This document shows positions 1 to 15,084 of a DNA stretch of 64,000 bases, piece by piece. The position numbers and the translations under genes are program-made. This DNA is from Prorocentrum cordatum. Lineage: Eukaryota. The stretch's first letter is position 1, and every line of letters begins with the position of its first letter. The notes beneath the pieces are model-generated. The model had not been told where the DNA came from. It was given only the letters and a program-made list of their open reading frames with translations, and made no database searches. Where the stretch lies: the NCBI GenBank assembly GCA_963575745.1, contig CAUYUJ010000278.1:1-64000 (forward strand), read 5' to 3'.

Positions 1-80
1 CCACCCGCTACTTTGGCCTCCTTCTGGAATACCAGGGCGCTCGTGCCACGCTCGTCGGCCCTGAGGCTTTCACGGCACCT

Positions 81-3000
81 TTGCCGCCATACCTCTCACG
101 GGCCCATGCTCTGCTGCCAATAGGCCTCCCTCCACCCGACCAAGACGCCATGGCGTACCTCGCCGACGTGATCCTGCACCAACCGCCAGACATGCTGCCG
201 CTCGTCGAGGCGGAGCTCGCCGCGGCGCCGATGGACGGCACCGATCAGGCCGCAGATGATCCCGTATCATGGCTGCTACAGCACATCGCGGCCAGCGATA
301 TCGGCTACATATCCATGGACTCGTTCCACGCGTCGGACGATAGCCAGGACGGCATCGATACCCAGGATCGAGACGGCACGACACCACCAGGCGACTCGGC
401 CCAGCGTGACCGCGACAGTGAACCTTACTTTGGGCACACCTCGTTGCACAGCAGTCCGCCCCACAACTCTGCTCAGGCCGACCCCAGAGCACAGCTCAAC
501 GACGCTGAAGGCGTCACTGCCGCTGACGCGACAAGCCATTCCACTGCATCGCCAGCTCATGCCAGCCAGTGCAGTGGCGGCTTCAGCCCCGCTGCACCAC
601 TGGCTAGACCTGGACATCCCCAGACCGCAGGTGGCAGCATCACGCCCTTCACCTCCGTACACCGTGACAACGTGACTGACGACTGGCAGGCCGACATCGA
701 CAACGACCCCATCGATGATGAGTACCCAGATGCCAGCGTTTCCCACGAGCCACAGCACAGCGCAGCGGCATCACGACATTGTGGCTGCCTCATCTGCCTC
801 TTTGTGGCCACGTACGCCATCGCGATAGCAATGCCGTACAAGGACCAGATCGATGGGTACTTGCCGACACCGAGCCGAGACCCCAGCTACCGACAACAAC
901 GACGACGCAAAGCGACGGCACCAGGCCCATCGGTGTCCACCACATCCCGACGCAAAACGACATACAATGTCACGTCCACATTGTGGGCCACTCTCAAATG
1001 GACCAGCGTCAAACTCAGAGATAGCGTCTCGGGCGGAGCCACTGCAGTCGGGGTCGGCCTCGGGGGTGTCCTGAAATGGGCCAGCGGCAAGCTAGGGGCT
1101 ATTGCCACAGGTGGAGTCGTGTGTGGGCTTCTACTCGTCGGTGCCAAACTTCTTGCCCAGGGAGCTGTTGGACACGTAGGAGCCCGCATCTGTGCGCGGG
1201 CCCTGGACTCATCCACAGCCCAGTGGTGCCTCCGCTGTTGCCAACCAAGCAGGAGGCCGCGTGATGAGGCCACATACAAAATGCCGTGCACGCTCGCCGA
1301 CGAACATGACGACCAGCATGTGCACGCACTCCGACATCCGCTGCTACAGGAACACTACGCCGCAGCAGTTGCCGCCGCAGTCGCCGATGTCACTACCGCC
1401 ACCACCGCCGCCATCGTCGAAGTCACTGCCGCCGTATCGCGAGCCTCGTCTGTCACACCAAGATCGACCAGCCCGTCTCCACGAGACGGCTCCAGGAGCG
1501 GCGCGGCATTCGGTAACCTACCGACTAACGAGGATGCCACAGCACACGGCAGCGACACCGAGGCAAGGGAAACGCGTGAGCGCACCCACGATAGCCCGTG
1601 GTCCATCTTCCGACATGCTGACGCTCGTGGTTCCTCCCCCGACGCGGACACCAAACCACCACGACGGCGAGCACGCTATGCATCACCCGACAGGCCCCAG
1701 GCGCCTTCAGGCCCTGGTATGCCTTACACAGCCCTCAAGCCACCGACACGCAACTTACGCAACACCATCCAGCGCGACCCAGCGGTCCCCGTGCCGCCGA
1801 AGAGCATACTTAACGCCCTGTATCAAAACGGTTTTGCGCTAGGAAACAGTGGCGTGTCTACAGAGGACATCAAAGACGCTCTGCGACTCCACGACCATCC
1901 TCGATTTACTCATGATCCAACACTCCAAGCGCTGGGGCCGTGGACGGACATCATGCAGAGGCCACCGAACCGCCTCACTTGGGTGCTGGAAGACTCGGGC
2001 GGGACCTCAGGCGAGACAATCTTCCCATACCTCACGTGGGACCTCCGCCAACCCACCACCGACGCGCCCACTGTCTTCTGGCATGGGACCCGCGGCGACC
2101 TTGCGGCCCGTCTTGCTGCCAGTGGGGGGCACCTCTTGCCAGGTCCCCGCCGTGAAGCGAAGGGCCGAACTGGCACCAACGTTGGCCGCACGTACGCGAG
2201 CGTGCACCCTTCGCTGGCCGCGTGGTACGCAATGCCGCCCCTCCCGCCTTACAGTCTTGAAGACGACACCCTCGCGTGGGGACCCATCGCACTCTGGATG
2301 TGCGAGGCCACCCAACCACCGCGCGGGGAAAACAGGCACAACTACGTGAAAGGGGAGGCCCACGGAGCACGCCTCATTTACCCTCGGGTCCTGAGCCTCC
2401 TCATCCGCATGGACTGGTGTGCCCCCACAGAAGCTGCTTCCAGGTGCCGTGCCCTTCCACACGCCTATGGCATGGGCGACTGCGCGCACGCCCTCCACAT
2501 CGCTGGCTACGATCATCCAGATCTCCGTGAGGCGGCTGAAGCTCACGACCAGGAAGCTAGCACCAGGCGCAGACCAGCCATCGCGGCAGCATGGCCACCG
2601 CCGCAGGCACTATACTCGCCAGAGGCAGCGCGAGTATGGGCCAAACAGCACTACGACACGGAAGCAGCCACCAGGGATGACCCTAACCAGCCCCGCCCAC
2701 GCGTCTCGCTTCACATGCTCCAGCTGGACCCGAAACCACTCATCGACCTGGTGTACACTGGCTTGCAAGCTGTCCCCGTGCGGGGGCACCCTGACGCACG
2801 CGGGTCGCGCCCCAGCGGCTCCAGCCCTGGGGCCGCGTCGGGCCCACCACGCACGTACAGGTTAGGCACAGCCCTGGCGCACAGTCCAGACCGCTCATCG
2901 ACGACATCTGGAGCCGACGAACGCCGTACGCCTTCCCTCATCAGCGCGGCCGCCGCCCTCGCCCGAGGCCGTGCTCGTCCACGACGATCTGCCTCTCGCT

Positions 3001-4151
3001 CGTCACGACAGAGTGACGGGAACTCCACCTCAGACAACAGTGGCATCGAGACGTGGGAGCATATTGTGACGGAAGAGGAGCCGACTGCCTACCACGTCCT
3101 CGCCTACCATGTCCGTGATGTGCGGTCCCGTGTCAATGCCCTTGGCATCGAGGTCTGGCTCGACCCTGGTGATCACCACGATGGAGCCTACTTACCGTGG
3201 GGGACGACAGTCATGGGCCACCGCGTTATTGACTCTGCGGTGGATGGGCGGGACGGCTGGGTCATCCTCCACCACGACCACGGCGACACCACTACTAAGC
3301 TCTGGGCACCGACCCAAGTCCACGTCAAAGCGGACGACACCTGGCGCACCGTCATGGTACCAGCGGACATGGGGCCCCAGTGGATCAGGTGCCATGCCGA
3401 GGACGCACGCCTCCCCGCCGAGGTTGTCCGCACTACAGGCCAATCCTGGTTTGCTGACGTCTGGCCCTTGTGGGATCGCCCGAGACCCCACCCAGACGAC
3501 CCAGGCACAAATGAGCATGCGCTCCCGCCTCTACCAGGACGCTGGTCTTGCCTACAGTGTCGATTCCAATGCTGTCAGTACTGTGCGGCCCGCCGCAACA
3601 CGCAGCTCGGCACCTCGGGCCAACCAACGTGCCCAGACTGCGCCCGCAGCGGACTGCGTACACTCATGGACTGGTCCACGGACTACTCGTGCAACAGTTG
3701 GACGTGTGCATACAGCACCAACAACAGGGACTCCGACACATGCTGCCTGTCCAGCAGGTGCCCCCATCCCCCCAGGCCACACAACCTGCTCGACGTCCGT
3801 GCCACAGGGATGCCGCCGCACATCCTTGCCCGCCACTTCGGCAACGCGCCAGCCCTCCACGACCTTAAGGAACCCCCCCGAGCGCCTTCAGGCCCCGGGG
3901 GGGAACCTCCACAACCAGGGCAAGCAGGCTACCAGGGTCAATGGTACCTCCCACCGCAGCCGCGGCGCGTCCCCAGGCAGGGACTGCCTGACGGCACAAG
4001 GCGGCACCTGGATTCACAGGAACGGGGATGCCCGAAGAACCTTCCCCCGACCAACCGCTTTGGAGGGAAGGCTACGTGCTCTTCAGTCCCCACCAGGCCC
4101 TCAAGGAGGAATTCACCTTCAACAAGACGGTCCGCCGACCCTACTCCCTAG
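81..4151 (+). CDS. Retrotransposon ORF1-like protein with PARP-like ADP-ribosyltransferase motifs, hydrophobic segments and Cys-rich putative Zn fingers
   Basis: 1356 aa open frame; VFWHGT (H codon 2082) ... GRTYAS (Y codon 2193) ... AWYA ... LWMCEA ... NYV...IYPRVL; Cys clusters CLQC-CQYC-CPDC and WTC..N...CC...C (~3543-3770). True start codon uncertain. Confidence 0.7.
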   Translation: MPPYLSRAHALLPIGLPPPDQDAMAYLADVILHQPPDMLPLVEAELAAAPMDGTDQAADDPVSWLLQHIAASDIGYISMDSFHASDDSQDGIDTQDRDGTTPPGDSAQRDRDSEPYFGHTSLHSSPPHNSAQADPRAQLNDAEGVTAADATSHSTASPAHASQCSGGFSPAAPLARPGHPQTAGGSITPFTSVHRDNVTDDWQADIDNDPIDDEYPDASVSHEPQHSAAASRHCGCLICLFVATYAIAIAMPYKDQIDGYLPTPSRDPSYRQQRRRKATAPGPSVSTTSRRKTTYNVTSTLWATLKWTSVKLRDSVSGGATAVGVGLGGVLKWASGKLGAIATGGVVCGLLLVGAKLLAQGAVGHVGARICARALDSSTAQWCLRCCQPSRRPRDEATYKMPCTLADEHDDQHVHALRHPLLQEHYAAAVAAAVADVTTATTAAIVEVTAAVSRASSVTPRSTSPSPRDGSRSGAAFGNLPTNEDATAHGSDTEARETRERTHDSPWSIFRHADARGSSPDADTKPPRRRARYASPDRPQAPSGPGMPYTALKPPTRNLRNTIQRDPAVPVPPKSILNALYQNGFALGNSGVSTEDIKDALRLHDHPRFTHDPTLQALGPWTDIMQRPPNRLTWVLEDSGGTSGETIFPYLTWDLRQPTTDAPTVFWHGTRGDLAARLAASGGHLLPGPRREAKGRTGTNVGRTYASVHPSLAAWYAMPPLPPYSLEDDTLAWGPIALWMCEATQPPRGENRHNYVKGEAHGARLIYPRVLSLLIRMDWCAPTEAASRCRALPHAYGMGDCAHALHIAGYDHPDLREAAEAHDQEASTRRRPAIAAAWPPPQALYSPEAARVWAKQHYDTEAATRDDPNQPRPRVSLHMLQLDPKPLIDLVYTGLQAVPVRGHPDARGSRPSGSSPGAASGPPRTYRLGTALAHSPDRSSTTSGADERRTPSLISAAAALARGRARPRRSASRSSRQSDGNSTSDNSGIETWEHIVTEEEPTAYHVLAYHVRDVRSRVNALGIEVWLDPGDHHDGAYLPWGTTVMGHRVIDSAVDGRDGWVILHHDHGDTTTKLWAPTQVHVKADDTWRTVMVPADMGPQWIRCHAEDARLPAEVVRTTGQSWFADVWPLWDRPRPHPDDPGTNEHALPPLPGRWSCLQCRFQCCQYCAARRNTQLGTSGQPTCPDCARSGLRTLMDWSTDYSCNSWTCAYSTNNRDSDTCCLSSRCPHPPRPHNLLDVRATGMPPHILARHFGNAPALHDLKEPPRAPSGPGGEPPQPGQAGYQGQWYLPPQPRRVPRQGLPDGTRRHLDSQERGCPKNLPPTNRFGGKATCSSVPTRPSRRNSPSTRRSADPTP

Positions 4152-7100
4152 CCATCACCAACATGTACAGGGATCGTGTCACGGTCAGGACCGTCTGCGA
4201 GTCGATCGCCGAGCGCATCCACACCACCCGCACCCGCTGGCGAGATGTGGTACTGTACTGGGACGCCGAGGGTGGTCCTGGGCCTCAAGCCCTCGACTAC
4301 GACATGCGACTCTGCGACGCCATGGTGAGCCGTGCCACGACCGAAGCCGAGCTAAACCACGACCGCAGCAACCGTGGTAGTTTCTGCCTCTATGGACCAG
4401 CGCACCAGCGAGCCGTCAACATCACGGCGATCTCCGAGCCGCAGAACATCGACTACATGGAGCATGTGCGGCGATACTCACCCGTAGGGGGGACCTACCC
4501 TGACCACGCCTTCGAGCACGTCTATCGGGGCTGGCAGCGGCCCGACGTGCCCACCATCCTCCCCGACACCCGTCCCCTCTCGAGAGCCGACTGGCAGCGT
4601 CACCAACAGCACCAGCAGCGCATCCAGCAGCGGGACCAACGTGACGCAGGACAGCACGGCACGCCACGCTACCGCTCCCCCGCGCGAGTCCCGACAGGCG
4701 GTAACACGGCCTACGACGGGGTTGCCGCCTACTACCGTGGCCCCATAGGCGCCAGGCCCGCGGCTGCTGGAGCAGCCGCCTCCAGCTACGGCCACGCCCC
4801 CCACGCCAGGGTACACCCAGCGGTCATCGGCTACCCGCGTGCACCCGTGCAGGCCCTAAGGGCCACCTCGCCAGTGCCAGGGTCCACGCGCGCCTGGGGC
4901 CTTTACTCAGGCCGACATGATGGCACCTCCAGCAACCAGCCCGCAGTGATAACCCCTGCGGCTTCAGCCCAGGGGGCTGCAACAAACCGTGGCAGGGCTG
5001 GGCGCCCCGAAGGATGGCGTGATGCGAACGTGCGCGCTTGGCAACCTCGCCAGCACACGCCCCCGCCAAACGTGGCTGCAGCACTGCGCCCTGCCCAGGC
5101 AAAACCTGCCCCACCTGAGCGGGAGAGGCAGCCGCTTACCCCGCTCGTCCTCACGCACATCCAGGCGCATCACAGCGCCTCCCCGCGGCACAGCGAGGGA
5201 AGCGCCCACCACGTCAGCCCCCGCCCCGACGCTGTCGACCCCGACCAGGCCACAGCCACGGCGGAGGGCGGCACAAGCGCCTCTCGCCAGCCCAGCCCAT
5301 CACCCTGCGCGGCGCCGATCCGATCCCCGAGCAGGGCGGATTCCGAGCGCGCTAATGCCCAGGCGACCTCGCCACGCGACCGCCACACGGGCGGGCGCGT
5401 CCCGCGCAGCAGGACCTGCAGCCGCCACAGTTCACGCAAGGCCCCAGGGAGCTCCACGAGCTCGCCGCCTCGCGAGACTCAGGCTGATGGCCGAGCCCCC
5501 GAAGTGGTGCCACGCTTCGGAGCCAGCGTCATCGAACCTGGCCAGGCGGTCGACCTCGAGCCGACGCCGTCCACGGACCACGAGCCGCCGCTGCCCACCC
5601 GCGTGATCGTCCCCATCGACGAGGCGCCAACCTTCGACCCGTTCAAGAACAAGTACCGTGTCAAGAACCTTGTGGCGGGTTTCGGCGGTGGCTCACCGCT
5701 CTCACCTCAGAGTCGGGGCGGAGCCCCCGCCACCTCAGCTGCTGCCGCGGCAGCGGCGGCCCCGCGGGGAATCAGCCCTGTCCGCAACGTGGGCCTCACG
5801 GCAGCGGGCATGGACGAGGCCCAGCGCCAGGCCTCCGACCGTGCTGCTGGAGCCGTTCCACCAGATGCTGCTCATCAAGATACTGACGGGGCGGGCGCGC
5901 CACCGCAGGAGGGACCAGCGGTGTCGCGTGCGCAGTACATGCGCGTGCGTTGTGCCGCCGCCGCGCCTAGCCGCCGCCGCTGGTTCGCTTTTGTTTCTGT
6001 GTTCGGCAGGACGGATCGAGGAGTCGCCTCCTTCTCCCTCTGCTGCCGTCTCACCTCTCCTCCCCTCGTCCCCTACAGTACTGGAGTGAGGAGGATTTTT
6101 CGTGACATTTTTACTGACGTTTATGAACCCCCCCTGGCGCAGTGCCGACCGTGTCCCGCCTATACTTCTGGCCTGACGGCGGCTTCAGCCCCGGTCAAGC
6201 TAATCCATAGGAACGCCATGAGCTCCTACTGTGGCCAAGCCTCCTACCTGGGCGAGGGTCAGGCTGACCTTCACCGTGCGGGGCGTGCAAACCCCAGCTC
6301 CACCGATGGAGACGGGCCAGGTCGCTCCATACACCTCGTCAGCCTTAACATCACCAGTCTCTCAGCGAATTGGCCAACCATCACCGCCCTTGGTGTCGAC
6401 CACAACGCCGCAGTCATAGCACTGCAGGAGACCCGACATGCCAAGCCGACTAGGCAAGCCATCGCTACCAGCGCCGCCAATCCACTCCACGGAGGATACC
6501 ACGCCAGTCTTGGACCTGACCTTGATCTGGCGCGAGCCCAGCGCAGAGCTGCCCACGGCGGCACAGACCACACTGTTGTGGGCAACACTGGCGCCTCGGG
6601 AGGGGTCGCCATCCTCTCTAAGGATGCCATTGTCGACTCCACTGTCGACGACAAAGCGCCCTGTATCGCCGCCCTCAAGGCCAAGAAAAGATGGCACGAG
6701 GTCTTTCTCCCGCTCTGCACTCAACACCGCCGCAGGCGGCGACGAAACAACCACGGGCCCGCGGGGATCTACATAGCGAGCCTCTACGGGATTGCTGGAG
6801 GAGACAGCACAGCTCTTTTTCGGCTCGCTGACTGCGCCGCCGCTAGGGTCGGCTCAGCCCCCTACTTCATCTGCATGGACGCCAATACGAACATCGACGA
6901 CAACCCACACCTTCTGCACATGTTGCAGCACGGATGGTTCAACGTTGCTGAGGGCACACCAGACCACACCATGCACACATACGGCAATATCCCTGACTGG
7001 GACCGCGTCACCAAGTGCCCCCGCACTTCGCGCATCGATTATATCATTGCCAACCAAGCGGCGCGATCCCTTGTCACCGACTTCTGCTACCTTCGCGACT

Positions 7101-10100
7101 TGCCAGCGAAGTCTCATGTTGGCCTGCAGGTCACGCTTGACCTCAGTCGCCTCGACCATACGGCCCGACGTCTTCTTGCCCCCACGCCCTACCCTCCCGA
7201 CGATGGAGCTCATGAGGGTCACGAGCTGCAGGCACTAGGGACCCTCATCGCTGGGCGATATCAGGACCGCATGGAACAGGCCGACACACGCGACGACGTG
7301 GAGCGCATGTTCGCCCTGGCTAACGAGGCCAGTCATGAGTACCATCTCACCCGTCTGCGCGACCTGCCACCTCCACCGCCCGACCACCCAAAAAAGAAGC
7401 CCCCCACCATGCACGGGCTCACGCCCACGTTCGAAGATCGACCAGTTGTCCCCCGCGCCTTCCCCACCTACGGAGCTTCCACGATACACATGAACCGACT
7501 GCGCAAGCTCCATCGGCAACTCTGTGAGCTCCGTTTCATCGGACAGCACCATCATTTGGATTGCCGTGCTATCCCGCCGTACCTCGCGCAGCGCATCGAC
7601 TGCACGTGGACCGCGGCCCGCCTCTTATGCCACAAGCTGCGCCCCACGGTTCTCCTAGACTTCCCCGAGGCCTGGACCCCCGACGAGCCAGTGCCTCACG
7701 GAGAGCACCTTGACGTTTTGATCCAACACCTCGACTTGGAGCTGGCGCGACGTGCGAACCGTGCCAAAGCTGAACGCATCAAGATATGGGCTGAGGGCGT
7801 CCGCGAGCCAAGCGGGCGAAAGGCGGCCATATACGCACGGGCTGCTGACAGCTCGCCCACGGCGTATCTCCGCACGCCTACCACACCTGACGATACGCAA
7901 CTCCACTGCGACACCAACGCCTTCAAACCTGACGAAGCTTGCACGGACGACAGCGACGCTGACACCGAAGCTGGCGGCTTCAGCCCCAGCGACGGTAGTT
8001 CGCCCGACACGGACAGCGACGAAGACCACACTCGTGAACCACCACCTGCGCAAGTCCCCGACATCCTCCCTGCCAACGCCATTGTTGCTAACACCAAGGA
8101 CATGCTGAAGCTCATGGTCGACACCTGGGAGCCCATCTTGGGCAGGTACCGTGCACGTGCGGGACATGACGCCGAAGCCATGCCGACGTGGGCCGACTTC
8201 TACGACGAGTACCGACAGGAGCTGCCTACGCCATCACCAGCTACCCCTTTCCACCTCACCGACGACCAACTCATCCACTTCATTCGCACCCGTTCACCGC
8301 GCCGCGCGGGGGGACTGGACGGCTGGACTACTAAGGAGGCTAAGGAGTTACCCGACGACATTCTTCGCCTCTTCGCCAGCGTCCTACGCGCTATGCAACG
8401 CACTGGCACCATCCCAGAACCCCTCCTCCACGTGCCAAACCCGTGCCTCCGAAAAGGCCGAGGCGAACTCCCAACGGACCAACGACTTCTCTCGGTGCTT
8501 TCCGTTTGGATGTATGCGTGGGAAGCGCCAGCTTACCGCAGCCTCACGGACTGGCGGAAAGGATGGACCCACGCCACGAGTTTTGGCGCTGTCCCCAAAG
8601 CTACCATTGGGGACGTCAGCACCTCTCTTGCCCTGCGCATCGAACACGCCAGGGCCTTACTCCTTCCCTTAGCTGGAGCTGCCCTGGACCGACAGAAGTG
8701 TTTCGACTACCTCATCACGGACATCTGCCTTAACCTTGCGCTTCACGCGGGGTGTCCCCAAGACATCGTTACTGTCCGCAGAAACTTCTACAGTCGCCAC
8801 AAACGCTACATCCGCATGAACGGTGCGTACTCTAAGGAACTGGCCAGGACAAACGGTCACCTCCAGGGAAGCTCTTGGTCCCTGGACGACATTAAGCTGC
8901 TCATGTGTGTGTGGACCAAGAGACAGCATCGATACGTTCCGCGATCACTCAGCACTACCTTCGTTGACGACAGCAACTCCACTACCCACACCGCGCCTGA
9001 GTTGCAGAAATCTCTTGATGAAACCGCCAAGTTTGATCGATTTTCTGGTCAACGCATTCATCCTGGCAAAGTGGCGGGGTGGGCGCTCACCGACGAGCTT
9101 CACACAGCCGTTACCCAGCTCACTCTGGCGGAACGGCCCTTACGCGTGGTCGACTCCTTCAAGCTCGTCGGGAGTTACATCAACGCCGAGGCAGCGCCGG
9201 CTCCAGCCGCGCTTAACCTCACGGCCACCGCTGACGCCCGTGTTCGCAGGGCGACTAGTCGCCTGCCGCGCATTGGCAAGCTCCCATCACCGATGCTTAT
9301 TAAGGCGCGGCACGCCCGTTCCCTTGCTGCCAGCGTCTGTACCACGGGCACCGACATTCAAGCCCCATCAGGCCCCGTCAAAACTGCCTACAACCATGCC
9401 CTTAAGGCGGCTATCCGCCCCAAGGGAAACAGGTGGGTCGAGTTTTGGACTCTCATGGCCGTGTGCGTCCCAGGACACGCCCTGGAGATTGACGCCATTA
9501 TGCAGCGTGAAGTCTTCCTGTGTCTGCGGCGACAGGTTAACCGCGACGCTACTCTCTGCGGTCTCGTCAGGGATCTCCAACACCATGTCCAGACCCTTTT
9601 CGGGGGAGGACCTGTTGGACGACTTGTCCAGACGCTTCAGCAGCTCCGTTGGACCTGGCCCACATTTGGCATCATGTACGACGACTGGGGCTGTCAGATC
9701 AGTTGGCTGAACCTACCCCAAAACGCCTTCCTTCACATGCTGCGAGCCTCACAACGCAGAGCCTTTCTGAGAAAAATCAAGCCACGGCGTCATGACCTTG
9801 GACACCTGGCCTCTGTCAGACAGGGCCTCGACCTCTTCGCCAGCACGTGGCTCGCCCGAACGAAAGGAGCAGCCAAATGCAACGCATGGCAGCTGGCGCT
9901 CCTCCTTAACTACCTGTCGGGCGGGGACCACACCCAACAGCGACGATCCCGATCAAACACGTCCGCTGACCCCAGCCCCATCTGCCGATACTGCGACGAG
10001 GAAGAGGAAACTCAGGAGCACACTGTTCGCGACTGCAAGTGCTGGGCCCGAGAAAGAGTCCCTCTCACCACCCTCATCAGTGACGAGCAGTGGGCCCGTC

Positions 10101-11665
10101 TTCCGCCGCACACAAGACACTGCGGGCTCTTCGATGAAGACCCAGCCCTCCTCGACCTGCAGGCCGACCTCGCGAGGGACCCGCTACCTCAGCCCATACC
10201 GCGGCCCCCACCTGAGGGAGATCCTGCGGCTTCAGCCCAGGACTCCTACACCACCTACCTTGACCATGACACTGGTTGGACATGGGTCTACGCTGCCACG
10301 GACGGTGCATGCACCAACCAAGCCATCCCATTGCTTGCACGAGCGGGCTACGGCGTCTACTACGGCATCGACCACCGCATGAACTACAGTGCACGCGTTC
10401 ACGGCATCACGCAGAACGCACAGCTTGCGGAGACCCTCGCCATTGTCCACCTCACGGCATGTGCCGAACGGCCCGTACACGTCTTCGTGGACAACCAGGC
10501 GGTGGTTGACGGTTTCCAAAGGATCATCGACGGACACTCACCACCGCAGGGCACGCACGTGGAGCTCTGGGAAAAGGTCCACCGATGCGTCATGGCCAAG
10601 CCAAACATGTTCCGCGTCGAGAAAGTCGCTAGCCACCAGGGCGACATGGGCATCGACCTCGGGCTCATCGGGCCCATCGCGGAGGAGTTCAATCGTCAGG
10701 CTGACGCCCTCGCCACAACGGCGGCACGTACTCATAACCTTCCAGACGACATTGTCGAAGCTGCCAAATCACGACATCGCCAAGCGACCGTGCTTCATGG
10801 AGTCGCTGTCGCCATCTACGAGCGTAGACACCGTACACTCCCCCTCCCACACCGCAGGGCTGGGTTCACAGCTGCGGAACTAAACAAAATGGAACCAAAC
10901 CCCCTGCTGTCTGACCAGGCACCACCCGCGGCTGGACCAGACATCCCACAGAACCCCGACGAGCTCTGGGCCGAGGCCCAACGGGCGATATTCGACGAAC
11001 AGGAGGACGACCCGTTCGGCTTTGGCGGGGGCCTGGACTTCCTGGGCGACGGGCCAGCCAGCGCCAACCCTGCCCCGTCGGGTACCCGCACGGCGCCCCC
11101 GACTCCGCCATCTAGAGCGGCAGCGCACCCACATGACAACGCCGCTCATTTTCAAGACGCTGACGAACAGGAGGATGACCTGTTCAGCTTCGGTGGGGGA
11201 TCGGACGCTGTGGACGACGGACCAGCCAGCGAAAACCCCGCCCTGTCGGGAAACCTCTCGACCCCTACTGCGACTTCGTCCCCGAGAGCGATATCGCCCA
11301 CATACGATGATATCGGCCACCGCCAGGACGCCGACCATGACCTGGGTGACCCCCGAGGACCGAGTGGCATGGAGGACGCACCGCCGATACCACACGCTGC
11401 TGACCATGCCGACCTACCGAGACGCCAACCTTCTACGCGACCGACCTCAGAGCCTTTGCACGGCATCACCACTGGTCCCACCGCGCAGACCACTCCACCC
11501 CCCCACCGCCGGCAGCCCGCGGGGGCGGCTTCAGCCCCCCCGCAGGGTACTAAACCAGACAGGCCCTCGTGCCCCATCCACGCGTCCATCGTTGCTGAGC
11601 GAGAGGAAGCGGCTCCCCCGACCTCTCGGGGCGTGGCCCTAGCGGCTCCAGCCCTGGGGTCGCGT
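564..11665 (+). promoter_or_regulatory. Dispersed array of 11 (+1 degenerate) bulged-C stem-loops (C-GGC-TYCA-GCC or C-GCC-TTCA-GGC on covarying lower stems)
   Basis: Bulged C at 578, 1702, 2816, 3883, 4959, 6180, (6850), 7975, 9198, 10227, 11526, 11643; each lower stem differs in sequence but is self-complementary. Function unknown. Confidence 0.75.
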
Positions 11666-12049
11666 CGGCCCCTCAAATCACATTTCAAGGGTGACGGACG
11701 CCAGCGTACTGGGTCCCGCACTACGCTAGTCCACCATTTGGACAGGCGTACCGAGGACCTCGCCTCTGTCTCGAGGCCCTCGGCTGCTGGCACAGAGCAG
11801 CCACCCCTCACCGACCGCGAAACCGAGCTGTCACAGGCTATGGCTGCCCTCCAGCAGAGGTGCTTAGCTCTCGCCGCTGACCTCGCCGCCGCCCAAGCTC
11901 GTCAAGGCCCTCTACTCCAGCGCCTCCACAGTGCTGGGCGAGCCTTCGCCGAGCTGCTCACGGCCTCGCCCGATGGTGCCGTGCCGACACTCAACATCCA
12001 AGCTATGTTGTCATCGTTCCGCGGCGCTCCACCTGGTGCCCCGCGCTAA
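4028..12049 (+). CDS. Retrotransposon ORF2/pol: AP endonuclease + reverse transcriptase + Zn-binding motif + RNase H
   Basis: APE ~6329-7140 (LVSLN, IALQET, CMDAN, SRIDYI, SH); RT ~8300-9180 (GGLDGW, QRLLSVLS, ALDRQKCFD, GHLQGSSWS, FVDD at 8960-8971); CRYC-x8-H-x4-C at 9983-10036; RNase H ~10288-10715 (ATDGAC, AQLAE, FVDNQ, KVASH, NRQADALA). An in-frame ATG at 6218 is an alternative start. Confidence 0.93.
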   Translation: MPEEPSPDQPLWREGYVLFSPHQALKEEFTFNKTVRRPYSLAITNMYRDRVTVRTVCESIAERIHTTRTRWRDVVLYWDAEGGPGPQALDYDMRLCDAMVSRATTEAELNHDRSNRGSFCLYGPAHQRAVNITAISEPQNIDYMEHVRRYSPVGGTYPDHAFEHVYRGWQRPDVPTILPDTRPLSRADWQRHQQHQQRIQQRDQRDAGQHGTPRYRSPARVPTGGNTAYDGVAAYYRGPIGARPAAAGAAASSYGHAPHARVHPAVIGYPRAPVQALRATSPVPGSTRAWGLYSGRHDGTSSNQPAVITPAASAQGAATNRGRAGRPEGWRDANVRAWQPRQHTPPPNVAAALRPAQAKPAPPERERQPLTPLVLTHIQAHHSASPRHSEGSAHHVSPRPDAVDPDQATATAEGGTSASRQPSPSPCAAPIRSPSRADSERANAQATSPRDRHTGGRVPRSRTCSRHSSRKAPGSSTSSPPRETQADGRAPEVVPRFGASVIEPGQAVDLEPTPSTDHEPPLPTRVIVPIDEAPTFDPFKNKYRVKNLVAGFGGGSPLSPQSRGGAPATSAAAAAAAAPRGISPVRNVGLTAAGMDEAQRQASDRAAGAVPPDAAHQDTDGAGAPPQEGPAVSRAQYMRVRCAAAAPSRRRWFAFVSVFGRTDRGVASFSLCCRLTSPPLVPYSTGVRRIFRDIFTDVYEPPLAQCRPCPAYTSGLTAASAPVKLIHRNAMSSYCGQASYLGEGQADLHRAGRANPSSTDGDGPGRSIHLVSLNITSLSANWPTITALGVDHNAAVIALQETRHAKPTRQAIATSAANPLHGGYHASLGPDLDLARAQRRAAHGGTDHTVVGNTGASGGVAILSKDAIVDSTVDDKAPCIAALKAKKRWHEVFLPLCTQHRRRRRRNNHGPAGIYIASLYGIAGGDSTALFRLADCAAARVGSAPYFICMDANTNIDDNPHLLHMLQHGWFNVAEGTPDHTMHTYGNIPDWDRVTKCPRTSRIDYIIANQAARSLVTDFCYLRDLPAKSHVGLQVTLDLSRLDHTARRLLAPTPYPPDDGAHEGHELQALGTLIAGRYQDRMEQADTRDDVERMFALANEASHEYHLTRLRDLPPPPPDHPKKKPPTMHGLTPTFEDRPVVPRAFPTYGASTIHMNRLRKLHRQLCELRFIGQHHHLDCRAIPPYLAQRIDCTWTAARLLCHKLRPTVLLDFPEAWTPDEPVPHGEHLDVLIQHLDLELARRANRAKAERIKIWAEGVREPSGRKAAIYARAADSSPTAYLRTPTTPDDTQLHCDTNAFKPDEACTDDSDADTEAGGFSPSDGSSPDTDSDEDHTREPPPAQVPDILPANAIVANTKDMLKLMVDTWEPILGRYRARAGHDAEAMPTWADFYDEYRQELPTPSPATPFHLTDDQLIHFIRTRSPRRAGGLDGWTTKEAKELPDDILRLFASVLRAMQRTGTIPEPLLHVPNPCLRKGRGELPTDQRLLSVLSVWMYAWEAPAYRSLTDWRKGWTHATSFGAVPKATIGDVSTSLALRIEHARALLLPLAGAALDRQKCFDYLITDICLNLALHAGCPQDIVTVRRNFYSRHKRYIRMNGAYSKELARTNGHLQGSSWSLDDIKLLMCVWTKRQHRYVPRSLSTTFVDDSNSTTHTAPELQKSLDETAKFDRFSGQRIHPGKVAGWALTDELHTAVTQLTLAERPLRVVDSFKLVGSYINAEAAPAPAALNLTATADARVRRATSRLPRIGKLPSPMLIKARHARSLAASVCTTGTDIQAPSGPVKTAYNHALKAAIRPKGNRWVEFWTLMAVCVPGHALEIDAIMQREVFLCLRRQVNRDATLCGLVRDLQHHVQTLFGGGPVGRLVQTLQQLRWTWPTFGIMYDDWGCQISWLNLPQNAFLHMLRASQRRAFLRKIKPRRHDLGHLASVRQGLDLFASTWLARTKGAAKCNAWQLALLLNYLSGGDHTQQRRSRSNTSADPSPICRYCDEEEETQEHTVRDCKCWARERVPLTTLISDEQWARLPPHTRHCGLFDEDPALLDLQADLARDPLPQPIPRPPPEGDPAASAQDSYTTYLDHDTGWTWVYAATDGACTNQAIPLLARAGYGVYYGIDHRMNYSARVHGITQNAQLAETLAIVHLTACAERPVHVFVDNQAVVDGFQRIIDGHSPPQGTHVELWEKVHRCVMAKPNMFRVEKVASHQGDMGIDLGLIGPIAEEFNRQADALATTAARTHNLPDDIVEAAKSRHRQATVLHGVAVAIYERRHRTLPLPHRRAGFTAAELNKMEPNPLLSDQAPPAAGPDIPQNPDELWAEAQRAIFDEQEDDPFGFGGGLDFLGDGPASANPAPSGTRTAPPTPPSRAAAHPHDNAAHFQDADEQEDDLFSFGGGSDAVDDGPASENPALSGNLSTPTATSSPRAISPTYDDIGHRQDADHDLGDPRGPSGMEDAPPIPHAADHADLPRRQPSTRPTSEPLHGITTGPTAQTTPPPHRRQPAGAASAPPQGTKPDRPSCPIHASIVAEREEAAPPTSRGVALAAPALGSRRPLKSHFKGDGRQRTGSRTTLVHHLDRRTEDLASVSRPSAAGTEQPPLTDRETELSQAMAALQQRCLALAADLAAAQARQGPLLQRLHSAGRAFAELLTASPDGAVPTLNIQAMLSSFRGAPPGAPR

Positions 12050-12416
12050 TCTCCTCCTTTCTGCCTGCCCGTGTGTACGCGTGGCTCCGCGTCCACGGTG
12101 TCAGGGCGTGGGGGCGGGGGGTGCCCCGTCACTGCGCGCCGCTTAGCGGCCAAGCGCCCAACTGGCGGTCTGCCAAGCCGCCTAGCCACGTGTCAGCACG
12201 TCGCCTTTCTTGTTGGGGCCTTTTTCCTCACGCGGTCTGACAGGTGAGATCATCATCGTCTGTCCGCCGTCTGTAGCGTCTGTCGCACTGCGCCGGGGGA
12301 GGGGTTTTTTGTTGCCCGCCCTCGTATCTAAAGGCTGCACCGCCGCAAATAGTGCATGCGAGTTGTCGCACCGCAGTGCGCCTCGCGGACGGACCCTGGT
12401 CCGCCTACTTGTCCGA

Positions 12417-12916
<500 letters not shown>

Positions 12917-15084
12917 GTGCATATCGCAAGCGCCTCCGCGCGCTGCCCCGCCTGGCCGGGCCCCGCCCATCTCCGGAATTCAGGGCCAGGGCAGCCCGGC
13001 AGCCCCGGCCTTTGTGACAGGGATTCCGGCCCGCAAGGCAATGCCCTGACGCGCGCCTCTATTGCCTCGGCCCGCGCACGCACCCGCAGGCCGTCGGATT
13101 GTCTTCGAGGGCCCGATGGCCGCCAGGATTTGGCCGACGAAACCTTTCAACGCGCCGAGGCGTCTCGGCGCTGAGACCTGGGCTACAAGCTCTTGTCAGC
13201 ACGGGCCCCCCCTCTGCAGAAGAATGCGCCGCTGCTCGCGCCGCGCTGCCCTGAACTCTCGAACGCGCGCAGATGACGCATGAACCAAAAAATGCCGCTG
13301 CTCGGCCGCGCGCGAGAAGCGCGAGCCGCTCGAGGGGGAGACCTCGAAAGGCAAGGTCAAGACCCCAGTGGCGCAGCCGTGTCCGCAGGCGCCAGTTGTT
13401 GGTTGAGCACGCATGCGATCTTCTTTTCGGTCGCTCTGCTTGACGCCCCCGGCCAGCCCCAATCTTCGGGTTGGGGGATATTTTTTTGGCCTTCGATCAG
13501 CGCGCGTTTCAGCTGGCGCGCCCCCAGGCCCTTGCTCTCGGATATGCACGTCTCCCTTAGCGGCGGAAGATGAGCAGAGCTACATGGGCGCGCTTGGCTT
13601 GGAATGTTGTCTGCGGAGTTGAAGCTCCGCCGTGCCCGCATCCATCGCCCATGGGCACGACGGCTCAAGTTGGTCTGGCAATCCCCAAGCCGACTCCTAT
13701 CCCACCCTCCTGCTCAGCATAGGTGGGGGGGATCTTGATATGCGTGTCAGTCTTTTCGATCAGTGTGCGTCTCAGCTGGCCCGCTCTCACGCCCGCCAAT
13801 GCTCTCGGACGTGTCTATCTTCTGCAGCAGCGGAAAATGAGCAGAGCCACGTCGTCACCAGCATCATCATCACCATAATCATCATCAGTCGATTGCCGGT
13901 GTCTTGCAGCGCCCAGCGAAGTGATCGAGGAGAGGGGACACCCATCATGGGCCCTGCGCTACAGTCGTTCCCATTGGCGCAATTGGCTGGAGTGAGACAA
14001 CGCAATCGGGATTCAATGCGCGGTGGAATCGATCATAAACATAGCAGGTCAGCAAGATGAACCAACAAGCACGCAGACGAGGGACACACGTCTACTACAT
14101 GGACTCTGTAGCTTCGGCATGGCATCGGTCGGCACTCGACCCCCGCGCGATGATTTCCACATGCCACATGAGGACCACGGCCACGTGAAGGGACGATCCA
14201 GGGCGGCGGCTCTCGCGGTGGGCAACGCGCTGCAGTGGCGCTTATCGGCAGCGAAAATCAGCCACGCCACCACCAAGCACGACGCGACGAACGCGATTGC
14301 CAGCGTCTGCCACGAGCACCTCGGCAAGGCGGTGTACCAGATGTATCAGCCAGAGGACGCGCAGATCATGCTCGCCAGACATCGCTGCACAGCATGCGTC
14401 GTGCACGCACACGACGGGGGCGGCACCTTTGCCAACGCCGCGAGATGCTTCGTGGGCGATTCCGACGCGGCCGCCAAGTTCAGGGTCGCGCTTGAGAAGC
14501 CGATGCAGGAGTGGCGGCGCTCTATTTTCCTGTCGGATGATGCGCGCGAATTGACAGCTGGATGCCCCATCAGAGAGTCGCGTGATCTGGGCGTTCGCAA
14601 GTGCGCGGGCGACCTGACTTCTCGCGCGCGCGGCCCCAGATGCGCGCAGCGCGGCCGCGAAGGTCGAGACCCCGGACCGCCGCTTGGGCGAGGCCCCCAG
14701 CCGCACCAGACTTGCGCTGGCGAGTCGCGACGCAAACGTTGCGAGTCCTTGTTTCGTGGGAGGTTCGCAGGGACCCACCGGGGCGCTCCACTACAATGGG
14801 GCCCCCATCGCTGGAGAAGTGCAGGCCGCCTCTGTCTTCCTGAGGGCCAGGGCACAGACCTCGGGGCGAAGCGGCGAGGCGATCAGGGCGAGGTGCTCGG
14901 CCATTCGGGCGGGCTGGCGCGCGGGACTTGAGGCGAGGGCCGCCGCGAAGGACAAGGCAAACGAACTCGATTCGGTCGCGGCCAGTTATGCTTGCGCGCT
15001 GCGCCAGGGGATCGCGCCCCACAAGCAGCTGAATGGCAAGGGGGGGAAGAAGGGTGAGAGGTCACGACCATGCGCGGAATCCGC

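Follow-up and report, generated by a model that had tools for sequence, protein, structure and literature searches.

A predicted ADP-ribosyltransferase-fold domain in the upstream open reading frame of a Prorocentrum cordatum LINE

What is a domain resembling the catalytic part of PARPs doing in the coding region of a retrotransposon? The question is raised by contig CAUYUJ010000278.1 of the dinoflagellate Prorocentrum cordatum (assembly GCA_963575745.1), of which positions 1 to 64,000 of the forward strand, the whole stretch analysed, are hereafter called the window. At its 5' edge lies a long interspersed nuclear element (LINE) with an open reading frame (ORF) upstream of the one that encodes its endonuclease and reverse transcriptase (RT). 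An earlier note on this DNA had claimed a diphtheria-toxin/PARP-class ADP-ribosyltransferase (ART) fold in the upstream ORF of a retrotransposon without long terminal repeats (non-LTR), and this central claim is supported by fold searches, by the motifs, by one homologue (P0010) and by the ORF that follows (ORF2). The best explanation, held with moderate confidence and based on a modelled structure, is that nucleotides (nt) ~1839-2420 encode an ART-fold domain of the His-Tyr superclade within a LINE, one that most likely binds NAD+ and mono-ADP-ribosylates a substrate. The analysis shows the ORF, its family, the fold, the kept His and Tyr, the missing Glu and a LINE setting with selection, whereas NAD+ binding, transfer, the place of Ala740 and the target are inferred. 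The ORF and the domain are placed as follows.

3..4151, forward strand: upstream ORF ('ORF1'), 1382 codons, open at the window's 5' edge, first ATG at 150.
1839..2420, forward strand: ART-fold domain, model residues ~24-217 of P0004, ORF1 amino acids (aa) ~564-757.

The true start of ORF1 and the 5' end of the element lie beyond the window edge, and residue numbers of ORF1 are counted from the ATG at 150. A 310-residue piece (P0004, nt 1770-2700) was used as query, and conservation is given from an alignment of 25 sequences (A3), counted over the rows that cover each column. The motif run quoted in the earlier note is present in the frame 3..4151 at nt 2073-2393, with letters, order and spacing as described. 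All of its motifs fall inside the span originally proposed, 2040-2410, but the folded domain is larger. Its elements, with the extension behind it, are:

2073..2093, forward strand: strand 1, VFWHGTR; His645 of its H-G-T (nt 2082-2084) is predicted to bind NAD.
2142..2156, forward strand: GPRRE loop between helix 1 and strand 2 (R-R 14/15, E 13/15).
2187..2231, forward strand: strand 2 and helix 2, RTYAS...SLAAWYA, with Tyr682 (nt 2193-2195) and Tyr693 (nt 2226-2228).
2283..2309, forward strand: strand 3, PIALWMCEA, with conserved Glu719 (E 15/18), on model strand 172-180.
2337..2393, forward strand: strands 4-6, variable HNYV and then H-G-A-R-L-I-Y-P-R-V-L, on model strands 190-192, 200-203 and 205-214.
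2337-2354, forward strand: HNYVKG, in the ORF1 frame.
2373-2393, forward strand: LIYPRVL, in the ORF1 frame.
2454..2675, forward strand: conserved helical extension after the ART core, with S-R-x-R, G-D-C and W-P-P-P-x-A-L motifs, helices at model 229-302.

The HGT and Tyr motifs, on whose conservation among homologues the proposal had been made to depend, are kept. In the W-H-G-T-R strand, which sits on model strand 102-108, H is found in 15/16 rows (Q in P0008), G in 15/16, T in 13/16 (C, C and M in the others) and R in 16/16. The segment GRTYASVHPSLAAWYA stands 31 residues after VFWHGTR and starts at nt 2184; its RTYAS lies on model strand 141-144 and the following helix at model 147-154. 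The Tyr682 column holds Y in 12/13 rows, the exception being a Cys in P0020, a chimera with a dehydrogenase tail, and the Tyr693 column holds Y in 14/15. The two tyrosines match the G-x-Y-F-A / S-x-x-Y pair of PARPs, and the register agrees with a sub-threshold Pfam PARP match of P0010. The PIALWMCEA strand is one that we take to resemble the LLLCEV strand of PARPs; its Glu719 is not at the catalytic Glu position. Further on, His738, Ala740 (nt 2367-2369) and Arg741 are conserved (H198 15/18 and A200 14/18 in model numbering), and arginines are kept at R648, R667/R668, R/K680 and R/K741. The GPRRE loop, the most conserved family-specific motif, is modelled with a predicted local distance difference test score (pLDDT) below 50 at 126-130 and is a candidate phosphate-binding (donor-loop) site.

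Relatives of the domain are few, about 25, and all are known as fragments. A phmmer search of P0004 over 1.84 billion representatives gave 22 matches at E<=1e-3, of which 11 reached E<=1e-10 and 7 reached E<=1e-30. Among the 22, P0016, is a spurious bacterial repeat protein, and two very short proteins were left out of the alignment. A profile search of a 5.8-billion collection gave 10 matches, of which five were new: a 420-residue fragment (98% identical), P0028 (226 residues), P0029 (495 residues) and two short EukProt fragments. A word-indexed search of that collection found no relatives of 733-2333 residues, the size of a full-length ORF1 or an ORF1-RT fusion, and in a scan of metagenome contigs 38 stretches matched the pattern, none of which was confirmed as a homologue. 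Homologues at 26-66% identity, and one copy at 98%, keep the same motifs. Three relatives carry bacterial or green-algal labels, namely a Myxococcales metagenome-assembled genome for one (98% identity) and Pyramimonas in EukProt for two (91% and 84%) among P0027, P0030 and P0031; these labels look unreliable, as if mis-binned or contaminant sequence of the element's true host had been named.

Does such a sequence take up the split beta-sheet fold of ARTs? The earlier note had suggested structure prediction followed by a fold search, and two independent searches with the predicted model return almost only ART-fold proteins. AlphaFold2 with alignment A3 gave a mean pLDDT of 75.1 and a predicted template modelling score (pTM) of 0.72; folding from the single sequence failed (pLDDT 42.7). 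Strands are modelled at 68-75, 82-91, 102-108, 141-144, 172-180, 190-192, 200-203 and 205-214, and confidence is low at 126-130, 156-170, 228-233 and 264-269. The helical extension has pLDDT mostly 65-85, and structure-search matches barely reach over it. In the Protein Data Bank (PDB), all 39 of the Foldseek matches listed are PARP-family catalytic domains (PARP1, 2, 3, 4, 10, 13 and tankyrase), with a best E of 1.7e-3 and probabilities up to 0.95. A VIA-align search of 48,161 representatives, independent of Foldseek, gave 139 chains at Z>=2 and 20 at Z>=5. Judged by title, 41 of the best 50 of these 139 are ART-fold proteins and the other 9 titles are uninformative. The ART-fold titles among these best 50 comprise PARP1-4, 10, 13, 15 and 16, tankyrases, Tpt1/KptA and Arr, together with diphtheria-, cholera- and pertussis-type toxins, DarT, ParT and the TASOR pseudo-PARP.

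A second VIA-align pass on Foldseek's 998 best chains placed 348 at Z>=5, one of them at Z>=8. Ranks 1-14 are Tpt1/KptA (Z 8.2-6.6, 81-88 residues, root mean square deviation (rmsd) 3.2-4.0), aligned over model 99..211, which is the whole NAD lobe. Ranks 15-50, within the best 50 of the 998, are PARPs (Z 6.6-6.1, 114-147 residues), aligned from model ~24 or ~54 to ~217. Over all PARP chain alignments of model 24..217 or 54..217 Z is 5.8-6.6, and the N-terminal helices and hairpin of the model (24-98) find their structural counterparts in PARP catalytic domains. The likeness to PARPs claimed by the earlier note was thus found, but the best structural matches are the NAD lobes of Tpt1/KptA and not PARPs alone. 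In the model, the compact short-loop core appears most like the Tpt1 NAD lobe.

The individual scores are open to a sceptical reading, in which the motifs are there by chance or the fold is a prediction artefact of a shallow alignment, and there is no ART at all. The middling values would fit this (Foldseek E 1.7e-3, Z 8.2, language-model atlas scores of at most 0.85, and the single-sequence fold with its pLDDT of 42.7). Against it, partly independent routes agree on an ART in the same register: the template-free model by Foldseek and VIA-align, a Pfam hidden Markov model (HMM) on a homologue, and language-model features. That the domain is no ART is very improbable, and the ART-fold assignment is preferred because every route leads to one superfamily and does so in the register that the conserved motifs define.

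The HMM evidence comes from P0010, in which aa 81-139 match profile positions 47-102 of Pfam PARP (PF00644) with E 0.0047 and 16.9 bits, below the cut-off of 26.7 bits. This match starts at the HGT strand and has the same register as the alignment in the earlier note. P0018 gives 10.6 bits (E 0.39), also below the cut-off. The Tpt1/KptA family (PF01885) has no match in any member, P0010 alone finds nothing among PDB sequences at E<=10, and the window's own protein yields nothing relevant against Pfam and PDB sequences. In the language-model atlas the named neighbours are ART families only, with scores of 0.79-0.83, all below the recommended 0.9: giant-virus PARP (0.82-0.83), Tox-ART-HYD1 (0.81) and Arr-ms (0.81). 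The profile-profile comparison was made with KptA alone; PF00644 was not found in the E. coli record or the 14 control genomes. Since no Pfam family is reached, the domain founds a sequence family of its own within the His-Tyr (diphtheria toxin / PARP / Tpt1) superclade.

Which residues would form the active site? In the ART superfamily the third catalytic position opens strand 5, and a Glu there is required for making poly-ADP-ribose and for catalysis of the toxin type. The strand order in the LINE domain is H-G-T (1), Tyr (2), PIALWMCEA (3), HNY(V) (4), A-R-L-I (5) and P-R-V-L-S-L-L-I-R-M (6). The earlier note was right that a catalytic Glu is missing, as no conserved acidic residue occurs between model 185 and 204 in the alignment. 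Its choice of the Asn/His of HNYVKG as the equivalent did not hold: these residues vary (H 2/18, N 3/18; the E of KGEAHG, E196, 2/18) and lie on what looks like the fourth strand, and the candidate is set aside on both counts. Ala740 of H-x-A-(R/K)-L-I-Y-P, on the fifth core strand, is more probably the equivalent of the PARP Glu and of the Tpt1 Val, as judged from strand order and from the N-G-V pattern of Tpt1 rather than from superposition. In the KptA alignment (A4) the invariant N-G-V-W-L lines up by pattern with H-G-A-R-L-I of the ART domain. From the strand order, the strand-5 rule and this pattern we infer a triad of the H-Y-hydrophobic type, His645 - Tyr682 - Ala740, plus the H-G-T and the second Tyr.

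Known triads, according to PMC10415124, are H-Y-E in PARP1-5, H-Y-I/L in PARP10/11/15 and H-H-V in TRPT1, the latter two going with mono-ART activity. The same source describes Asn191 and Val193 of mouse TRPT1 sandwiching the nicotinamide, and the His-Thr pair of H-G-T binding the adenosine ribose in Tpt1, diphtheria-toxin-like ARTs and several PARPs. By analogy, the active-site make-up of the LINE domain is read as that of single-ADP-ribose transferases (PARP10/11/15-like mono-ARTs and Tpt1/KptA), not of poly-ADP-ribose polymerases. No Glu is available under the present assignment or the earlier one, and therefore poly-ADP-ribose synthesis is unlikely, leaving mono-transfer or mere binding.

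Mere binding would make the domain a pseudo-enzyme, an ART fold that has no transfer activity and gives the LINE protein a binding unit or scaffold for NAD+/ADP-ribose, for nucleic acid or for another protein. Neither Glu nor any other acidic residue is conserved in strands 4-5, the structural matches include PARP13 (Z 6.4) and the TASOR pseudo-PARP (Z 4.5), and the donor-loop region is long and of low model confidence. PARP13, with its triad Y-Y-V, however no longer has the His (PDB entry 4x52 is titled as an H810N variant), while the LINE family keeps the NAD-contacting His (15/16), the Thr or Cys of HGT and both Tyr (12/13 and 14/15) down to ~30% identity. Retention of His, Thr and both Tyr over such a distance argues, on sequence grounds and with a modest lean in their favour, for NAD+ binding and for catalysis. 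A pseudo-PARP does work in transposon control, according to PMC7532188, but the Glu-less H-Y-I/L and H-H-V enzymes are active mono-ARTs (PMC10415124). Loss of transfer activity is on the whole somewhat unlikely.

The leading structural matches raise another candidate, a true Tpt1/KptA RNA 2'-phosphotransferase carried by the LINE, which would remove 2'-phosphates or cap 5'-phosphates by means of an Arg-His-Arg-Arg tetrad. Tpt1/KptA NAD lobes occupy ranks 1-14 with Z 8.2-6.6, the H-G-T and the H/N-G-small-hydrophobic strand resemble the invariant H105-G-T and N169-G170-V171 of KptA, and several conserved Arg lie near the site. On the other side, PF01885 matches no member and the hhalign comparison with 32 KptA sequences has a probability of 0.1, the Tpt1 alignment is limited to the NAD lobe (model 99..211) with model 24..98 aligning with PARPs, and in second place the triad has the Tyr of PARPs instead of a His. 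The RNA lobe of Tpt1, which carries three of the four catalytic residues (PMC10415124), is not matched by model 24..98. A genuine Tpt1 is accordingly improbable, and an H-Y-hydrophobic mono-ART is preferred.

The reading also depends on what kind of element encodes the domain. Downstream of ORF1 the window contains:

3992..4151, forward strand: two-frame overlap, ORF2 in the -1 frame relative to ORF1; the ORF2 frame is open over 3992-12049.
4028..12049, forward strand: ORF2, 2673 codons from the first ATG, with apurinic/apyrimidinic endonuclease (APE), RT and RNase H.
6395-7063, forward strand: Exo_endo_phos (APE-type endonuclease), 30.3 bits, Pfam cut-off 24.5.
8630-9082, forward strand: reverse transcriptase RVT_1, 14.5 bits, E 0.03, below the cut-off of 29.6.
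10295-10726, forward strand: RNase_H, 35.2 bits, Pfam cut-off 25.8.
12050..~12416, forward strand: 3' untranslated part, about 370 nt after the ORF2 stop.
12417-12892, forward strand: (TC)n array, 476 nt, 87% matches, ending the element in place of a poly(A) tail.

RT motifs A, B and C are readable as DRQKCFD, LQGSSWS and FVDD, with a weak zf-RVT match behind them; the RT piece has no match among PDB sequences, and with RVT_1 below its cut-off the RT is therefore divergent. The stretch 1500-4100 was found in 20 runs from 15 studies (word shares 0.23-0.81), mostly marine or other aquatic metagenomes. Four runs were compared with window 1-13000 at >=88% identity, word depth not being equal to copy number. 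They contributed 75,166 (X1), 5,698, 764 and 827 contig pieces with varying degrees of similarity, and depth over ORF1 is comparable to that over ORF2. Every site is represented by dozens of distinct contigs; in X1 there are 65 at nt 2005 and 52 at nt 2369. Cover by other copies extends into the 12153-12586 bin but has fallen to 0 in 12587-13000, repeats being skipped from 12409 on. The element is read as a high-copy, recently active APE-type LINE.

The label 'ORF1' is right for the window copy, in which the upstream ORF is separate, but in many copies it is fused to ORF2 by a single C. The extra C behind 4004 has a depth, relative to the total depth, of 694/2499 in X1, 1616/2143 in X2, 13.3/13.3 in X3 and 21.5/58.6 in X5, or 28%, 75%, 100% and 37% of the depth. 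The C lies where both frames are open; copies that have it would read ORF1 and ORF2 as one frame of ~4,000 codons, and the window copy needs either re-initiation or a frameshift of -1. Whether the label applies thus differs from copy to copy, and the ART may form the N-terminus of a polyprotein.

Could the domain be a passenger, a host PARP-like fragment captured once by this LINE lineage and carried along to no effect? Capture as such has a precedent, as dinoflagellate retrotransposons pick up host enzyme domains, for example DNA methyltransferases (DNMTs; PMC5890265), and the ART family is small and known as fragments only. Against a passenger, the homologues at 26-66% identity keep the motifs. 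The fragment P0029 runs collinearly with ORF1 aa 145-650 (40% identity, E 1e-98), and identity rises to 37/49 in the final block of the alignment, leading up to the WHGTR strand, compared with 40% overall; the upstream architecture is therefore common to both proteins, and the domain is the better-kept part, the flanking ORF1 diverging faster. Among the 12 rows of the indel table none falls in nt 1770-2700. Most indels within the ORFs preserve the reading frame (+21; -1/+1 two bases apart; -3; +2/+3/+1 within six bases), the frame-breaking ones being the +C behind 4004 and a rare +C behind 6127. Substitutions were scored for the 40 best-supported of 1,281, a non-random pick from which 2 in the frame overlap were dropped; of the remaining 38, third codon positions account for 24 (binomial p = 1.6e-4), and synonymous changes outnumber non-synonymous ones by 24 to 14 (15 to 7 in ORF1 alone). 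A synonymous GCA>GCG change at nt 2369, in the Ala740 codon, occurs in all four runs. The coding region of the LINE is under codon-level constraint, and carriage of the ART domain as an idle passenger is quite improbable.

A number of results weigh against the reading as a whole. No member reaches any Pfam family at its cut-off (0/25) and the window's own protein has no PARP match; the family profile finds no PDB sequence at E<=10, and hhalign of the family with the 32 KptA sequences aligned only 17 columns, outside the NAD lobe, at the probability of 0.1. Foldseek gave no PDB match at E<=0.001, with TM-scores of 0.2-0.35, and the wide VIA-align search no match at Z>=8, where Z below 8 may reflect a common arrangement. 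Against the viral structure collection BFVD the top match is a ParB-like phage protein and the result is overall weak and mixed. The model was built on only 25 mostly fragmentary sequences, with loops 126-130 and 156-170 of low confidence. Every single score is middling and none is individually strong. The H-Y-A assignment is read from strand order and motif pattern, and the missing Glu is also the state of pseudo-PARPs. Finally, none of the 24 runs listed is an RNA run, and the linkage of ART and RT rests on the window copy and on depth.

If the domain is an active mono-ART, what would it modify? It would bind NAD+ and mono-ADP-ribosylate a substrate met by the LINE ribonucleoprotein. The favoured substrate would be a nucleic-acid end that bears a phosphate, whether the 5'-phosphate where the endonuclease has nicked or a terminus of the element's RNA or cDNA, because Tpt1/KptA are the closest folds, conserved Arg are many and a LINE works on nicks and RNA ends. 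An analogy is offered by Tpt1/KptA and the H-Y-I/L PARPs, which act on such phosphorylated ends; TRPT1s ADP-ribosylate 5'-phosphorylated single-stranded DNA and RNA (PMC10415124). A host or element protein, modified in the manner of PARP10, would be about equally likely as substrate. The functional ideas of the earlier note, counter-defence and action at the nick, are still conjecture. In its most specific form, the proposal is that a LINE-borne nucleic-acid ADP-ribosyltransferase caps the 5'-phosphate of the nick, or the RNA or cDNA end, after nicking. With such an ADP-ribose cap the cell could not simply re-ligate or degrade the intermediate, which would favour target-primed reverse transcription. 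This proposal as a whole is rather unlikely as matters stand.

How does the domain compare with known systems? The mono-ART PARPs (PARP10, PARP11 and PARP15, also PARP16 and PARP12) align with the model over the whole domain; PARP16 has Z 6.6, and PARP10 (3hkv_A) aligns chain 822..1008 with model 24..217 (135 residues, Z 5.8). They share with it the W-H-G-T/S-R strand, the strand-2 Y, a second Y in the next helix and the absence of a catalytic Glu. The LINE domain differs from PARPs in its low identity (12-17%), in falling below the Pfam PARP cut-off in 25/25 members and in an acceptor-loop region of only ~6 residues between strands 4 and 5, and it has features of its own in the GPRRE loop, the C-terminal helical extension and a retrotransposon instead of a cellular multidomain setting. 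With Tpt1/KptA (TRPT1) it shares the H-G-T, the compact short-loop core and a hydrophobic residue replacing Glu, and the NAD lobe of Pyrococcus horikoshii Tpt1 is wholly covered (Z 8.2, rmsd 3.4, 83 residues). It differs in having no profile similarity, Tyr and not His in second place, no detectable RNA lobe and a PARP-like N-terminal part. Tpt1 acts on nucleic-acid phosphates (PMC10415124), and by analogy an action of this type would suit a LINE.

Viral and phage proteins are a further point of comparison. The atlas neighbours with scores of 0.82-0.83 are short PARP-domain proteins of Nucleocytoviricota, and in BFVD the top match is followed by iridovirus PARP-like 100L (probability 0.96) and a Bodo saltans virus ART (probability 0.99), with E ~0.02. 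This likeness to giant-virus and phage PARP-like and ART proteins is weak (E 0.019 or worse, atlas below 0.9) and gives no evidence of descent.

Among retroelements, the accessory domains known from LINE ORF1 proteins are esterase and PHD, besides RRM and CCHC. Retroelements bearing esterase, PHD or DNMT likewise have an enzyme domain of host or viral type inside the coding region, retained by selection, and the host is of one kind, a marine protist rich in LINEs; the class of enzyme differs, being here a NAD+-dependent ART. DNMTs are the case reported from dinoflagellate retrotransposons (PMC5890265). An ART domain in a retrotransposon-encoded protein was not found in the full-text literature, a search that did not cover subscription journals, Repbase reports and supplements. 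In PMC3482391, PMC7159879 and PMC3417536, the passages that mention both ARTs and retroelements deal with unrelated matters. The locus is a known fold and a known type of element in a new combination, with a new sequence family.

What would such a combination mean? Besides a few accessory domains, the activities known from LINEs are those of a nucleic-acid chaperone, an endonuclease, a reverse transcriptase and an RNase H; with a NAD+-using ADP-ribosyltransferase this repertoire would come to include post-translational modification or the modification of nucleic acids. ADP-ribosylation is central in conflicts of hosts with viruses and toxins and in DNA-nick signalling, and a retrotransposon with its own ADP-ribosylation writer would therefore offer a direct way of studying how such elements cope with host repair or silencing. 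Capping of nicks or RNA ends, if true, would introduce a new enzymatic step into retrotransposition and show a selfish element making natural use of ADP-ribosylation at DNA or RNA ends. A compact H-Y-Ala ART family with a GPRRE loop, missed by standard profiles, is also useful for annotating the repeat-rich genomes of marine protists.

Some observations concern the window and the element at large. Differences between copies over window 1-13000 are strand-asymmetric (X1 has 195 T>C and 163 C>T places but 75 A>G and 59 G>A, and the three remaining runs show a similar pattern), and the asymmetry probably consists of synonymous pyrimidine transitions at C/T-rich third positions. No other copies of ORF1 or ORF2 were found by tblastn in the 64-kb window. 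The spliced-leader motif of dinoflagellates does not occur in the window, even with 3 mismatches allowed, the 5' end of the element lying outside it. Window 13000-64000 has 14 further frames of 350-806 codons that match no Pfam family at E<=1e-3; at 60-73% G+C, long open frames are expected by chance.

Within ORF1, upstream of the ART domain, a hydrophobic 20-residue stretch, CGCLICLFVATYAIAIAMPY, and a Gly-rich hydrophobic stretch lie at window ~777-1200 (ORF1 aa ~210-350). Both are kept in P0029 and belong to no Pfam family; membrane-like segments of this kind are unusual in a LINE ORF1. Near the end of ORF1, at window ~3520-3760 (aa ~1125-1200), a Cys-rich stretch with several C-x-x-C pairs, also of no Pfam family, is probably a zinc-binding module.

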